Part shown: piece after piece, positions 1,146 to 22,178 of the stretch
Position numbering within the stretch: the first letter of the stretch is position 1
How the letters are laid out: every line of letters starts with the position of its first letter
Assembly: GCF_041146345.1 (NCBI RefSeq)
Contig: NW_027191407.1
Coordinates: 434,001 to 498,000, forward strand
Source of the DNA: Neodothiora populina
Lineage: Eukaryota
Direction of reading: 5' to 3'
DNA: 64,000 nt
Translations under genes and position numbers: made by a program
The notes under the pieces: generated by a model
Database searches by the model: none
What the model saw: the letters and a program-made list of their open reading frames with translations, nothing else
What the model was told of the DNA's origin: nothing

Positions 1146-4080
1146 ATGACTTCCGCCGCAGCCCCTCCTTCCTTCTCGCACCCGCGCCGTCGCGCTGCAA
1201 GTCCGAGTCTGAATCCGGACTCTTTGATTGACTCACTCGTCAATATGTCGATCCGCAAAGGGGCTACCTTCCATACTCCGACCATCAACGATTCCGATCT
1301 GTTGGACCCCTTTGAATCCAAAACCACGACTTCAGCCCCGATTGCCCCAGCAGTTCTCCGTTCCATGACTGCTCGTTCCACAACCTGCCCCAAAGAACTT
1401 GAAGATCTCCTTGTCGGTGCTGGAGAAAGAAGAGTGGTGGAATTCCTTGCAAAAGTCGACGAGGCTGTCAATAACAAATCGGTGGAGCAACTCGGAAGCG
1501 TCTTGAGTGAGCCCGACGTCCTTCCCGTGCCCGACTTTCTTGTGGAGGGGGCGTCTGTCAACTCTCATCCTGACCATACGGAAGATCAAGCCTATGATAG
1601 CGGCCTAGGCTCGAGTATCAGTTCCGAAGGGACAATTAAAATCGAAGACGAAGACAACAATAGTACGTGTGCCCGTTTGCGTTTTCTGCGACTCCCCTTT
1701 TCATTATTCTTAGAGGTGAACCAAGTGATTGTGGAGGTACTTCCGTACCCTGGAGGCATCACCTGCTTCGCTGGCTCCATTTACCCCCCCCGTGACCATG
1801 TAATTTGCGTACTACGTGATCAGGGAGGGGCAGGCTCCTTCCTCATCTTGTCAATAGAATCCGAGCTAACTATTGTGGTATAGAGGCGAATAAGAAGAGC
1901 CGGAAACTGTCCTGCTCTGGCTCAGCCATTACCAGATCCATCTCTGGAGCTTCGGACAGTCCTCCGAAAGACACTCTCAGTCACTTTGCCATCCAGCAGA
2001 TCCACCGCTTCATCGTCCGACCAATCCTGACCGAGCCAGCTCTGAAGGATTTTCATCTTCTCATTGCTCAAGTTCCACGTCGAATTGGTGATCGACAGAT
2101 CAACAATCTCAGAGATCTTGAGAAAACACTCATCTTCCTTGCGCCAGTAAGTAAAGCAATTGCACAGGGCTATTACTTTGCGCCCGTTGCTTATTCCATT
2201 TGCTATTGTTCAGGACTATTCGCGTTCGCCGGCTGCCTACCTTCAATTTTGCGAGACTTCGATCCATTGTCTCCACGCAACTGTCAACGGCGTACACGAG
2301 TCTGACCAGCGACTACCGACCGATCGTCCATACACTAACCACTATTTTCTCGACCTCGTCCAACAGATCCGAAGATACGCTCAAATCCTTGCAGCTAACA
2401 GGGCTCGCCAGGCCAAAGGCGAACAAGTCGACGATATGGACGTCACACCGTAAGTCTTTTCCGTCAACTCTCTCCTGTTTAATGTCCGAGGTCATTTTGT
2501 TTCATTGAGTGGTTCGAGTCAATCTCACTTAATCCATTGTGGCTGTGTAGCCTTGTATTGGAAGGAACGAAAGCCCAGACGCTAACGACTCGGCTAGAAC
2601 TCCCCTCGAAATCCGTGGCGGGATGACTCAAACAGGCCGCCCTGCCCAATTGGGATACCGCACCGAGGATCAACTTATATCTTTGGCTGATGACCAACCT
2701 CTTCAAGAGGATGCCGTCGCTCCCATCAAACGTCGCATGTCTGAAGACATTGACGACGATGGCGTCCCACGCTCCATGGCCCGCCGCAAGAAGGGCGAGT
2801 TGCCTAAGACTTACACTTGTCCCGTCGGTGGCTGTGACAAGGAGTTCAATCGTCCCTGCGACAGAACCAAGCACCTGAAAACTCACGAGAGACCCCACAA
2901 ATGTCCCGAAGCTGGATGTGACTTCAAGACCAGAGGATTCCCAACCGAGAAGGAACGTGACCGCCACTGGTCCGACAGACATGATCCCGACGCAAGGACT
3001 TGGGACTGTCAGTTCAAGGACTCAGAAAACTGCCCTTACTCCTCCAAGCGTGAGCACAACTTGAAGTCTCACATGGAAAAAGCCCATGGCTGGACTTATG
3101 TTCGCTCCAAGGGTGTCAAGACAAAGTCGTCGGCACCCGCACCCAAGACCAAGGCGAAGGCAAAACCTCGCCAGTCGACATCGACCAACTCGTCGTCGTC
3201 GACTCCATTCACCTACAACGAAACCTCACCCAGTCTGAATGCGAATACCGACTCCCTTACATCCCCTGGTACTGTAGACCCCAGTCCTGTCCAGAGCCTG
3301 CAAGACTTTGAGTTCGACTTCAATCCGGACTTCGCGGGCCACTTCAACACAGACATCTTCAGTGACAACTCACTCATGGTGCCCCAAGTATTCCCTTACA
3401 CACCTTCACTTAGTGATGGTCGTCGCGCATCGCATGTGACATCGTCGTACAGCACCCCAACGATGCCAATGTCCTCGAACATGGGTGGCGACATGACCAT
3501 GATGCATGACATGACTGGTATGGGAAATTATCAGATGAATCCACCTACCCCAGATGACATGGCTTTTGGCATGCCTGATGCCAACGGCGTCATGTCTCGT
3601 GGAGATGTCGCTATTCCTCCAACTCCTGAAGATTTGGAGTTCAGCCACAGTGTGTTCAACAAGTGGAACTTCCAGCAGAGCCCGGCCGTTGTGCCTGGCG
3701 AGGTCGACCTGAACAAATGGGGTCTTCAGCAGAGCCCCGCGATCGCGCCCGGCGATGTCGACCTGCACAACGGCCGCGACTCGGGCTATCTCAACAACAG
3801 CAATTTCGGTCAAAGCTTCCAGGAGCAACTCCACCCCGCGGTTCGAGATGACCCTATGTTCACTAGCATGCAGAACTACAATCTGCAAGCAACTGGTGGA
3901 ACCAACAACACTGCCTTCGAGGGTCAAGATTTTCAGCTGGACGACTACATCTCTAACACTGGTGTAAACGAGCCCCTGTTCACTGACGCTACCGGCTTTG
4001 GTGAGGCAGGCAGCCAGTTCGACGTGAACAGCTCTATCGACTCAAACCCCTTCAGAAAGTTTTTCCCTGAGATCAACTAA
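1146..4080 (+). CDS. sltA: C2H2 zinc-finger transcription factor of the SltA/StzA/ACE1 family; 4 exons (1146-1662, 1884-2146, 2214-2449, 2598-4080)
   Basis: Family motifs IRKGATFH, DSGLGSSI, SAITRS, LRDLEKTLIFLAP, DRPYTNHYFLDLVQQIRRYA and RSMARRKK. Three fingers: CPVGGC..HLKTH, CPEAGC..HWSDRH, CQFKDSENC..HMEKAH. The GT-AG introns join in frame. Confidence 0.9.
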
Positions 4081-18698: not shown

Positions 18699-19947
18699 AT
18701 GTCTTCTGCTGCTTCGGGATCCGCCCGCAAGGTGACTGCTTCAAAGTCGCTGGGCAAAGTCCTCGTCACTGGAGGGTCTGGTGGACTGGCCTCTCAGATC
18801 ATCGCCCAACTCATACAGCGCAATGCCACTGCCCAAATCTCTACTGTAGACCTTCGCGCCCCGGCAGAGCCCATTCAAGGATGTCAGTACCACTCTGGAG
18901 ACCTCACTGACGAGGCTGCAGTGGCCAAAATCTTCGCAGAGGTCAAGCCTGACGTGGTCATCCACACTGCCAGCCCGCGCTTTGATTCTCCACACCCGAT
19001 CATGTACAAGGTCAATGTCGATGGAACCAAGAACCTCCTCAAGATCGCCCAGGAAGCTGGAGTCAAGGCCTTTGTCTACACCAGCAGTGCGAGTGTCATC
19101 AGCGACAACAAGACTGACCTGGTCAATGCCAACGAGGAGTATCCTCTTGTCATAGGCGACACCCAGCCCGAGTACTACACCACTACAAAGGTAACATCTG
19201 TCTTATCTTTGTTCCCATGAAGCCCCTTTGCTGATTTTCTGTCTTTCACAGGCTCTCGCGGAGACAGCAGTCATCGAAGCAAATCGTCCCGCAAGCCACC
19301 CACGCTTCTTGACTTGCGCCATCCGACCCTCAGGCATCTACGGCGTGGGTGATCTCTTGGTCCTTCCTGGCATGCTCCAGGCATACTACAAGGGTCAGAC
19401 CAAGTTCCAGCTCGGCGAGAACACAAACCTCTTCGATTTCACCGACAACCAGAACGTTGCCCACGCGCACCACCTCGCTGCCACTGCCCTCCTCACCACA
19501 CTCGAGCGCGAAGAGCAAGGCCAAGCCAGACCTCTCGAACACGAAAAGGTCGACGGAGAGGCTTTCTTCATCACCAATGACTCTCCCATCTACTTCTGGG
19601 ACTTTACCAGGTCCGTCTGGCGACATGCCGGCGACCAGACCGCCCCGAGCAGCATCTGGCACATCTCCAAGGGCATGGCCTTGTTCATTGCCACCGCCAT
19701 GGAATGGATCTTCTGGCTCTTGAGGCTGGGCGCACCCAACTTGACCAGAACAAAGGTCAATTTCAGCTGCATGACCAGATACTACAACATCGACAAGGCC
19801 AAGCGCAGACTTGGCTACAGACCCGTCATCACCACAGAACAAGGACTACCCCTGGCAGTGGCCGATTGTATTCGCAGAGGCGTTGTTCCTGGTATGCCTG
19901 AGCATCTGAAAGGGTCCGCAGGCGGGGACACGAAGAAGGAAAAGTAG
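18699..19947 (+). CDS. erg26: Sterol-4-alpha-carboxylate 3-dehydrogenase (C-3 sterol dehydrogenase); intron 19191-19251
   Basis: VLVTGGSGGL, VIHTASP, VYTSSASV, YTTTK catalytic motif, CAIRPSGIYG, GEAFFITND, CMTRYYNIDKAKRRLGY. Confidence 0.88.
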
Positions 19948-20328: not shown

Positions 20329-22178
20329 ATGGTTCCGGCTCGGGAACCTCTGTCATATTACGCAGAGTACCTGCCAAATATCAAAAGCGTCACTTTGACA
20401 TTATTCTCTTCACCGCATGACTCTTCTATTGGCCTCAGCCCTGACGGTTGGACTGTACGTGTCACTGGCTCTTCTGGTCAAGTCGTGAATATACCTCTGC
20501 CTGCAAAATGCAGCACCAGCGGATCAGGTATGCGAATACAACAAGACTCACAGCGAACAACGATCCGTCTGCCAGCGGACCCTGATACTACATCTTCACC
20601 GCGAATTGAAGAAACCGTCAATCCATGGACCGCGACTCAATTATCGCAACAAGTCGGACTGAGTTGCAAGTCCTGCGCCAGCGTGATCGTAAAGTCAGGC
20701 ACCATCTCTTCATGGAAGGACTTGCCCAGCGAGGGCTGGGCCGAGATGATGGATCTATGGCATTGTCACAAACCAGACGAACATCATTTGCATGGCCCTC
20801 ATGACGAGCAGGGCTCTGCGAAGGGCTATGCTGCGGGAAGTAAACTCGTCGCTAGGCAAGGCACAGGGTTTGTGGCTACGCTGGGGTTCTTGCTTCATGG
20901 CGGTGATTGTACTGGAGTCAAGGTAAGTCAATGGCTTGTCTTTTGATGCTTCCGTCTCTTTTGTTGTGGCTTTTTTTGCTCTCTCATTTCTTCATCTGCT
21001 GTTGTCTTTGATCCTGGGCAAAAAGAAGGTTTCTTCCCCGGTATTCATCGCTGGTGTCACAGCCAGCCATGTTCGTCCAGATCAGTGGGATTTGAATACC
21101 GATACAATTGCCCTATATTGAGCGACACAAAGGGACAAAGAATCTCATTCGAGTTCTTCCGAGGTGTCGATCGCGGGGCGGTCCTTGACGGAACACTCGT
21201 GGTCGGCTACTTTGTGATGCTCGAAGTTGAAGACTTCTATCGACCTTGCGTCTCAATATTCTCCATTGCCGTCCCGATTGAGCATCTTTTGGGTGCGGTG
21301 GGAGTAACTTTGAGATACACATGCTTTTCTCTAGCTAGCTTTATATGTTGACAATAAATTTGACATTGCATTTCTTTCGCTCCCTCCCTTAACATCCAAT
21401 TCGATGATTTCCCTTTTCGCGTAGCCAAATCAAAAGTAATCCAACAGTCCTCTGATATATGTTCTAGATCACTCAAGAAACCACACAAGGCACATCCCCA
21501 TCACCGTCACTGCATCCAGATCAACTACAATGTTCCTCATGCGGATCCTCTCTGGGCCACACCGACTCTCAAAGTGAAGGGTTGAAACTGCTCAAGCCAT
21601 ATCTTGCTCTATCCTCCTCATCTTCCCCACAACCCTCCCGCATATTCACGACGGAAAAGTGGCTCTCGGCCTACCTACTCTCCCTGATCGAGTCTACTGG
21701 CGTACGCAAGTTCATTCTCCGCCAACGACAGCATACCAATGAGACCACCGATGGACCAACCCGCCGCGACCGCGAGATATGGGTCTTCTCAACAGGACTA
21801 AGCTTCACATCATCATCGACATTCTCTTCATCACTTGTAGCAGAAGCAGAACAAGATACCAAAGTAGCGAGAACAGAGCACCCGAAAGAAGCGCTAAAGA
21901 TTTTCTATCGTACCCATGCTGCCGCGTCCGCCGACGATACTCGGTCACAAAACGACAATGGGTCAGAGTCACTGAAGCGCGAGAACCTGATGGTGGAAGA
22001 ATTGCGCTTGCCCTCCTCGGATCTGGAGGAGCAGCTGTGGGATATACTGGAGAACAGCACGAGGACGATCTTGTTTGGTGATGAAATGGATGCGCAAGGA
22101 GGAAGGCTGGCGAGGTTTGGGCAGTGGCATGTGGGATTGTTGGAGAGGTTTTCTCACGAGCATGGGCTGCAGTTGTGA
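20329..22178 (+). CDS. UBE3D/Ipa1-like protein (ubiquitin-conjugating enzyme E2C-binding, HECT_2 family); intron 20923-21467
   Basis: YAEYLPNI start, CKSC, WKDLPSEGWAEMMDLWHCHKP, second CxxC (CSSCG) after the intron, STGVRKF, C-terminal W-x-VGLLERF. The phase-0 intron joins in frame. Confidence 0.85.
21016..21324 (+). ncRNA. Intronic H/ACA-like guide RNA, putative snR81-related (U2 Psi42 guide)
   Basis: Hairpin GGGCA..UGCCC with pocket arms AAAAGAA (21021-27) and GAUAC (21101-05). H-like box AUAUUG 14 nt from the pocket. Terminal hairpin with ACA (21319-21) 14 nt below its upper stem. Confidence 0.7.

Follow-up and report, generated by a model that had tools for sequence, protein, structure and literature searches.

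The uridine at position 42 of yeast U2 small nuclear RNA (snRNA) is modified from yeast to vertebrates, and its modification is guided by box H/ACA RNAs in several phyla (cited sections of PMC6049503 and PMC5733568). The guide in Saccharomyces cerevisiae is the 5' hairpin of snR81, in which the 5' strand AAAAGAA and a 3' strand that starts with GAUAC leave U42-G43 of U2 unpaired (PMC6049503 and PMC8096250 Tables S1-S2, as far as cited here). Here we describe a putative guide for the same uridine in a 64,000-nucleotide (nt) stretch of the Neodothiora populina genome (assembly GCF_041146345.1, contig NW_027191407.1, positions 434,001 to 498,000 of the forward strand; hereafter the window). A long intron of an IPA1/UBE3D-family gene in this stretch very probably encodes, judging from its letters and those of its orthologues, a conserved box H/ACA guide RNA whose first hairpin (HP1) would be a guide of the U2-Psi42 type and shares AAAAGAA and GAUAC with the guide strands of snR81.

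Other described guides act on the same region of U2. The vertebrate SCARNA4/ACA26, the non-eutherian SCARNA15 and C50C3.14 of Caenorhabditis elegans are H/ACA guides for the same U2 uridine, and SCARNA4 restores Psi42 in yeast from which snr81 was deleted (PMC5733568, sections cited). These RNAs belong to other phyla and are likened to ours by target, not by sequence comparison. All three are Cajal-body RNAs with CAB boxes. Among fungi, pugU2-43/44 of Schizosaccharomyces pombe is an H/ACA guide for the branch-site region of U2 with a 1-nt bulge in its upper stem. It was found by a search for a conserved 3' pocket strand and differs from our RNA in targeting the next uridines (43/44), in doing so via its 3' hairpin, and in being encoded downstream of RPC10 and not in an intron (PMC5473140, passages cited). 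The H/ACA RNAs of Neurospora crassa, which like N. populina belongs to the Pezizomycotina, mostly exceed 160 nt in length, and some of them lie in introns (PMC2780460, Table 2); the cited part of that survey predicted no pseudouridine guide for any snRNA. The motif CGAUAC occurs in none of the 20 N. crassa sequences printed in its supplement file 2, where a line break could hide one. The main fungal survey of small nucleolar RNAs gives snR81 (HACA_26), in the part cited, as a Saccharomyces-only RNA (PMC5824354). In the literature searched we found no U2 pseudouridylation guide from filamentous Ascomycota; the supplements of PMC5824354 could list one under another family name.

The host intron and its predicted pocket for U2

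The gene and HP1 comprise the following features, numbered as in the window (A2 is an alignment of the whole element, described below).

20329-20922, + strand: exon 1 of the HECT_2 / IPA1-UBE3D family gene
20923-21467, + strand: host intron, 545 nt, phase 0, with GTAAGT...TTCTAG ends
21468-22178, + strand: exon 2 of the same gene
21016-21113, + strand: HP1, the 5' hairpin with the U2 pocket, placed by folding, covariance model and RNAalifold consensus
21016-21021, + strand: 5' strand of the HP1 lower stem, GGGCAA, pairing with 21108-21113 (A2 columns 5-10 with 101-108)
21021-21027, + strand: 5' guide strand AAAAGAA, complementary to U2 U44-U50
21028-21033, + strand: 5' strand of the HP1 upper stem, GGUUUC, pairing with 21094-21100 (A2 columns 17-21 with 89-93)
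21034-21093, + strand: apical part of HP1, ~50 nt longer than in orthologues
21094-21100, + strand: 3' strand of the upper stem, GAAUACC, with one U unpaired or mismatched
21101-21107, + strand: 3' guide strand GAUAC(AA), of which GAUAC is complementary to U2 G37-C41
21108-21113, + strand: 3' strand of the lower stem, UUGCCC, from the consensus fold and covariation

A sequence-only reading of the window had placed a 545-nt intron within an IPA1/UBE3D gene, and the splice ends and the matches of both exons to the Pfam family HECT_2 (PF09814, UBE3D/Ipa1 family) bear it out. Exon 1 matches profile positions 1-194 and exon 2 positions 200-356, and this break of the profile at 194/200 across the exons indicates that both the intron and the gene family are correctly assigned. 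We take the host family to be linked to mRNA 3' processing. The hairpin stems, guide arms and AUAUUG box which the same reading had pointed out in the intron are all present there.

The guide strands of the window are exact Watson-Crick complements of U2 UUCUUUU (U44-U50, 7 base pairs [bp]) and GUAUC (G37-C41, 5 bp) and leave U42-G43 free (yeast numbering; the uridine is U41 in vertebrates), as had been proposed. The U2 target used for this comparison was that of yeast, printed as the in vitro substrate of snR81 (PMC8096250 supplement, Table S2). G21101 faces C41, adjoining the target U42, and the last pair of the 5' guide strand with U2 requires that A21021 be released from the lower stem. 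The pairing thus amounts to 12 bp in the window and to 10-12 bp in its relatives. Guides need at least 8 bp of pairing with their target, with the pairs next to the target weighing most (PMC6049503 and PMC5733568, sections cited). Both target-flanking pairs are present in the window, and its 7 + 5 bp lie above the 8-bp minimum. No U2 gene was found in the window or in any of the 125 loci collected. This region of U2 is well known to be conserved, and U2 of these fungi is therefore expected to be the same as that of yeast at the paired positions.

Complementarity of two arms to U2 is common in itself: both strands of the window hold 60 arm pairs of at least 10 bp, 12 of them with at least 12 bp. 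Those of at least 10 bp are far commoner than in shuffled sequence (mean 22) because the coding sequence is rich in GAAGAA. Only in HP1, however, are the arms of such a pair adjoined by both an upper and a lower stem. Arms of at least 12 bp with both stems arose in none of 100 dinucleotide shuffles of the window, and arms of at least 10 bp with both stems arose in 10 of the 100. These shuffles mark the hairpin as unusual without settling the matter.

The pocket could also belong to a real H/ACA RNA that serves another substrate, such as a similar rRNA site, the match to U2 being secondary. In favor of this, the two conserved A's that follow GAUAC lack contiguous pairing with U2, and the first of them would face A36. 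Yet the HP1 strands found no pocket match, not even one of 4 + 4 bp, in a screen of recovered eukaryotic ribosomal DNA fragments that covered only 18S rRNA (model positions 584-1831), 5.8S rRNA and large-subunit (LSU) rRNA (positions 1-700). Moreover, the match to U2 extends over 10-12 bp, includes both flanking pairs and surrounds a uridine whose modification extends from yeast to vertebrates. We consider another substrate very unlikely, and U2 remains the predicted target.

Conservation and covariation in orthologous introns

To collect orthologues of the host gene, metagenome contigs were scanned with protein alignment; of 373 pattern matches, 178 were confirmed as relatives, and the best 80 of these were kept (L001-L080). 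The proteins of these best 80 of 178 loci are 32-49% identical to that of the window, and a protein search with exon 1 found relatives at 32-43% identity only, the named ones being mostly Dothideomycetes. The nearest named Dothideomycete proteins of the loci are from Alternaria (92-99%), Friedmanniomyces (91-99%) and Aureobasidium (63-75%), and for other loci the nearest protein is a Leotiomycete one (Hyaloscypha, 43-73%) or comes from Sordariomycetes (~45-50%). In 57 of the 80 loci, tblastn searches with both exons revealed a gap the size of an intron (252-453 nt) at the position of the window's intron; they did not find exon 2 in the remaining 23, many of which are cut short.

Nearly all of the orthologous gaps read GGGnnn-(A)AAGAA-GG(stem)...(stem)CC-GAUACAA-nnnCCC-(A/U)AGAUCAA. 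A simple anchor pattern matched 64 of 68 distinct sequences (window included); two of the four misses have just 26 and 78 nt of intron, and L056 and L078, the remaining two, deviate by one base. The conservation of AAGAA..GAUAC in orthologous introns had been set beforehand as the test of the proposed guide, and the outcome is in its favor, the hairpin being present in the same intron of 78 of the 80 loci. We aligned the whole element of the window with that of 55 distinct full-length relatives (alignment A2, 56 sequences) and, for the hairpin and hinge box, 55 relatives without the window (alignment A3). Both alignments show (A)AAGAA and GAUACAA, the guide strands, as invariant or conserved to at least 90%. 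Many of the loci are closely related, and the model builder estimated an effective sequence number of 14.3.

Unconstrained RNAalifold folding of A2 returned 11 pairs, of which 6 make up the lower stem and 5 are the first of the upper stem. AAGAA and GAUACAA were left single-stranded, which reproduces the pocket described above. Both stems covary. Standard pairs fill 90.9% of the stem cells, compared to 72.9 +/- 1.0% in 500 column shuffles, none of which reached the observed value, and a shift of the 3' partners by 1-3 columns lowers pairing to 28.6-50.0%. Cells changed on both sides number 119 (40 +/- 6 in the shuffles), and compensatory changes occur at 9 of the 11 stem pairs. In the lower stem, four of six pairs have changes on both sides, and one of them appears as AU in 19, GC in 18, UA in 8 and CG in 5 sequences; all five consensus pairs of the upper stem have both-side changes as well. 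G-U pairs are frequent, and the strand is therefore that of the host gene. The hairpin is real, not a chance match.

A covariance model of HP1 and the hinge box (R1), built from A3 and thus with the window left out, was used to scan the loci and the window. It matches 78 of the 80 loci once each, on the strand of the gene and with 27-74 bits, loci outside the building set included; the contigs of the two loci without a match (L013 and L055) end just after exon 1. Its top match in the window is HP1 itself (21017-21112, + strand), with 22.1 bits and a rough expect value (E) of 6.8e-4 (filters off, both strands, 128 kb). In its alignment to R1 the window takes the consensus register; two pairs are non-standard, and 52 nt are inserted at a place that spans 23 nt in the model. 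This makes the window's copy a member of the family, albeit the most divergent one. A second R1 match (3109-3155, + strand, 17.3 bits, E 0.012) was rejected as chance: it has neither upper stem nor 3' strand and is a look-alike of lower stem plus box within a 509-codon open reading frame (ORF; 2551-4080).

Two further observations concern HP1 in the family. The motif YCA(A/G/U)UGG is conserved on the 3' side of its apical part (A3 columns ~44-52) and reads UCAGUGG in the window (21082-21088). Three loci whose nearest protein is that of Friedmanniomyces (L041, L043 and L051; 91-99%) have the 3' strand UAUAC instead of GAUAC, by which the pair adjoining the target is lost. These loci have low R1 scores (43-44 bits), and the U2 guide in this group may be weakened or retargeted.

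The whole element and the copy in the window

Downstream of HP1 the element continues with the following parts.

21115-21121, + strand: hinge box AUAUUGA, an H-box variant with G at position 6
21122-21249, + strand: middle domain (hairpin HP2 and a small hairpin), a long stem-loop in minimum free energy (MFE) folds
21250-21316, + strand: terminal hairpin HP3, with the lower-stem strand GUCUCAA (21250-21256) paired to UUGAGAU (21310-21316; 7 bp)
21317-21319, + strand: ACA box, directly after the 7-bp terminal stem

The sequence-only reading had noted an H-like box, AUAUUG, 14 nt from the pocket and with a deviant last base. We confirmed its spacing. Counted from the first base of the 3' guide strand, the box, which is better taken as the 7-mer AUAUUGA, starts at 14 nt in the window. 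Of 65 scorable sequences, 48 have this same spacing and 11 more have 13-16 nt; in the other 6 the script misplaced the pocket or no box was found. The distance in the window fits the 14-16 nt of the H/ACA rule. The deviation is also there, yet it appears to be a normal variant of the family, as 20 of the 60 boxes found, that of the window included, have G at position 6 with A at position 7 (40 have the canonical ANANNA) and all 56 aligned sequences share the A's at 21115, 21117 and 21121.

An ACA stands at the equivalent place, 198-243 nt past the start of HP1, in 54 of 55 full-length orthologues, the exception (L001) having AUA. Placing the 3' end three nt past the ACA box of the window, at ~21322, as is the rule for H/ACA RNAs, gives a predicted RNA of ~307 nt (~21016-21322, + strand), in good agreement with the ~310 nt estimated originally; the relatives' element is predicted to end ~220-240 nt from the start of HP1. 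The architecture of hairpin, hinge, hairpin and tail is therefore present, with one extra hairpin between the hinge and the terminal hairpin. The apical part of HP2 is common to the orthologues (UAYCC-UCUUC...GAU-GGRUUAC, with AYCC/GGRU covarying by eye), and the alignment holds no conserved pocket in HP2. RNAalifold returned no structure for the HP3 sub-alignment. The terminal loop of HP3 reads nGAG in 29 of 56 sequences (UGAG in 11, including the window at 21279-21282) and AGA alone in 16, according to a crude pattern count; the nGAG loop bears a faint resemblance to the CAB box of Cajal-body RNAs, which we note as a lead only.

Conserved single strands flanked by covarying stems, together with a box at 14 nt and an ACA-closed terminal stem, are the signature of H/ACA guides, and such features are not expected of a splicing element. 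They leave hardly any credence for a conserved cis-acting structure that would control, for example, the splicing or expression of IPA1-type genes without giving rise to a stable trans-acting RNA, even with the presumed link of the host family to mRNA 3' processing, which is in its favor. We thus continue to read the element as the template of an H/ACA guide RNA.

In most relatives HP3 carries pocket strands of its own (UUUCAC and GAUUA, 12-16 nt before the ACA), whose predicted target is the complement UAAUC-UN-GUGAAAC. A primer used to probe yeast 18S rRNA begins with the second half of this motif (preprint 10.1101/2021.06.28.449823, part cited). Using a pattern made from the guide complements and the yeast primer, we retrieved 18S fragments on seven short contigs in bacterial assemblies (L119-L125). 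All seven are eukaryotic small-subunit rRNA by Rfam, and six read GGUAAUC-UU-GUGAAACUCC; the matching uridine lies ~281 nt before the 3' end of 18S rRNA (L122). About 30 of the 56 family members have at least 10 bp of complementarity with 18S GGUAAUC-U-U-GUGAAAC (e.g., L059:3199-3432 and L046:2648-2873). The window, L001 and L012 are without this complementarity, and the pocket strands of the window's HP3 have diverged. The cited part of a yeast modification table gives no pseudouridine at this site (PMC5699541). The seven contigs are filed under bacterial species; their eukaryotic 18S, 5.8S and LSU ribosomal DNA, recognized by Rfam, marks them as contaminants in those assemblies.

Several other candidates for the 18S site were set aside. 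An assignment of the HP3 target to yeast 18S Psi1415 (snR83) was wrong, given the distance of the site from the 18S 3' end. The N. crassa guide Nc ACA8 (18S-Psi1509) has different guide strands and is not the counterpart of HP3. All 38 matches in a scan of viral contigs for the motif were unrelated. A primer in PMC10211490 also holds the motif; its locus is not stated there, so we did not use it.

Several points weigh against reading the window's element as a working U2 guide. The target sequence is that of yeast and not of these fungi, its conservation in them being general knowledge, and the screen for rival targets covered only 18S positions from 584 on, 5.8S and LSU rRNA up to position 700. 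The 3' strand offers five contiguous pairs, compared to seven in yeast. The hinge box of the window is not ANANNA (G at position 6), the RNA has three hairpins where the canonical H/ACA RNA has two, and no H/ACA family of Rfam was found in the intron at E up to 10. Of all copies in the family, that of the window scores lowest (22.1 bits as opposed to 27-74), its upper stem contains a U-U mismatch or bulge, and its apical part has ~50 extra nt, so that the arms are 73 nt apart, as against 32-57 nt in orthologues whose pocket the script placed correctly. Finally, the upper stem GGU-UUC/GAA-u-ACC of the sequence-only reading is present, and is in the consensus register of the family, but it is not the MFE fold of the naked RNA. 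That fold uses another upper stem, CGGUAUUCA/UGAAUACCG (-34.0 vs. -29.5 kcal/mol for the consensus register), the 5' side of which is supplied by the neighboring GGUAUUCA, and this preference of 4.5 kcal/mol would move AAGAA 12 nt off the stem.

The low score, the insertion (52 nt for 23), the off-consensus MFE register and the loss of the HP3 pocket strands of most relatives are also what a decaying or inactive copy of a genuine family of U2 guides would be expected to display, the insertion and the competing upper stem blocking the pocket. This we regard as unlikely, though less so than the alternatives above. The window retains intact guide strands and an intact lower stem, as well as the ACA and all three of the A's that never vary in the hinge box, in a gene whose protein is ~40% identical to that of any relative and in an intron that is otherwise unalignable. 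When both pocket strands are held open, the consensus register is slightly better than the alternative (-29.5 vs. -28.4 kcal/mol). In addition, there are active guides whose upper stem is bulged or imperfect (PMC5473140 and PMC5733568, sections cited). A functional guide therefore remains our preferred reading for the window as well, where the copy might be less effective.

Relation to snR81 and to the fungal family

By eye, HP1 is similar to the H5 template of yeast snR81 (PMC8096250 Table S1) in the GGG../..CCC ends of the lower stem, in AAAAGAA and in GAUAC. The hinge of snR81, AAGAGCAA, can be set beside AGAUCAA or AGAGCAA in the family, and its apical AUCAAGUGG beside UCARUGG at a comparable place, again by eye. 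In this comparison, which was by eye only, the shared lower-stem ends, hinge and apical motif hint at homology with the snR81 5' hairpin, to which HP1 may be homologous. The differences lie mostly outside the pocket. snR81 pairs with U2 over 7 + 7 bp, whereas 7 + 5 bp are available in the window and 5-7 + 5 bp in its relatives. Yeast snR81 is made of two hairpins, with a 3' pocket for 25S Psi1051/1052, whereas our element has three and no conserved 25S pocket: the strand that snR81 uses for 25S U1051/1052 (UUACAUAUU in yeast) is not conserved in the alignments of HP2 or HP3. A permissive scan for such a pocket that allowed G-U pairs was uninformative: its matches, in 47 of 56 sequences, were scattered and showed no pocket geometry. 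snR81 is, we assume, an independent gene, and the RNA here is intronic.

An Rfam search for snR81 or another H/ACA family, which had been suggested along with the original proposal, matched no family. There were no matches at gathering score in the whole window, and the intron's sole match at E up to 10, to the C/D RNA snoR101 (13.8 bits, E 4.9), was taken as chance. The designation of the element as snR81-like thus holds for the 5' hairpin with its U2 pocket and fails for the remainder, which lacks a 25S pocket, has three hairpins and matches no Rfam model. Since it is intronic as well, we liken the working of the element to that of the snR81 5' hairpin but do not classify it as snR81. It would be an undescribed H/ACA guide of Pezizomycotina, predicted from comparative sequence evidence.

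We infer that the RNA accumulates, binds H/ACA proteins and modifies U2 along the following lines. By analogy with other intronic H/ACA RNAs, it would be freed from the spliced pre-mRNA of the IPA1/UBE3D-type gene by exonucleolytic trimming, and Cbf5, Nop10, Gar1 and Nhp2 would bind the released RNA. The pocket strands of HP1 would then pair with U2 on both sides of U42-G43, allowing Cbf5 to isomerize U42. The element is an addition to a known class of RNAs and involves no new mechanism.

The long intron also bears on the annotation of the host gene. Many database predictions for proteins of this family turn to nonsense exactly at the end of exon 1 in the protein alignment because they read through the intron there. 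This is the case for P0004, P0012, P0013, P0016, P0018, P0021-P0024, P0029, P0031, P0049 and P0062, with ~140 codons of intron read-through in P0022. The long, snoRNA-bearing intron has probably led to erroneous gene models here. Just upstream of the host gene, an ORF (19195-19947, + strand) resembles the sterol-4-alpha-carboxylate 3-dehydrogenase part of P0052, a prediction from Periconia in which this dehydrogenase is fused to a HECT_2 protein. The dehydrogenase and HECT_2 genes are therefore neighbors in other Dothideomycetes too.

A bolder reading, which we offer tentatively and consider doubtful, is that HP1 and the snR81 5' hairpin are true orthologues. The U2-Psi42 guide would then be ancestral to Ascomycota and would at first have resided in the intron of the IPA1/UBE3D-type gene, kept there by Pezizomycotina and freed in budding yeasts with a new 3' hairpin. 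The loops UCUUC..GAU (HP2), nGAG (HP3) and UCARUGG (HP1) would be CAB-like signals, and a single RNA would be directed to both U2 and 18S rRNA. If so, the U2-Psi42 guide would not be an invention of Saccharomyces. Lineages differ in how such modifications are installed. The covariance model can be used to annotate the RNA in fungal genomes, and the intron that bears it accounts for the many database proteins of the host family that read through it. Judged by nearest proteins, the candidate U2 guide occurs across at least the Dothideomycetes and Leotiomycete- and Sordariomycete-like lineages, in which the guide has remained in its host intron despite divergence of the host protein to ~40% identity.

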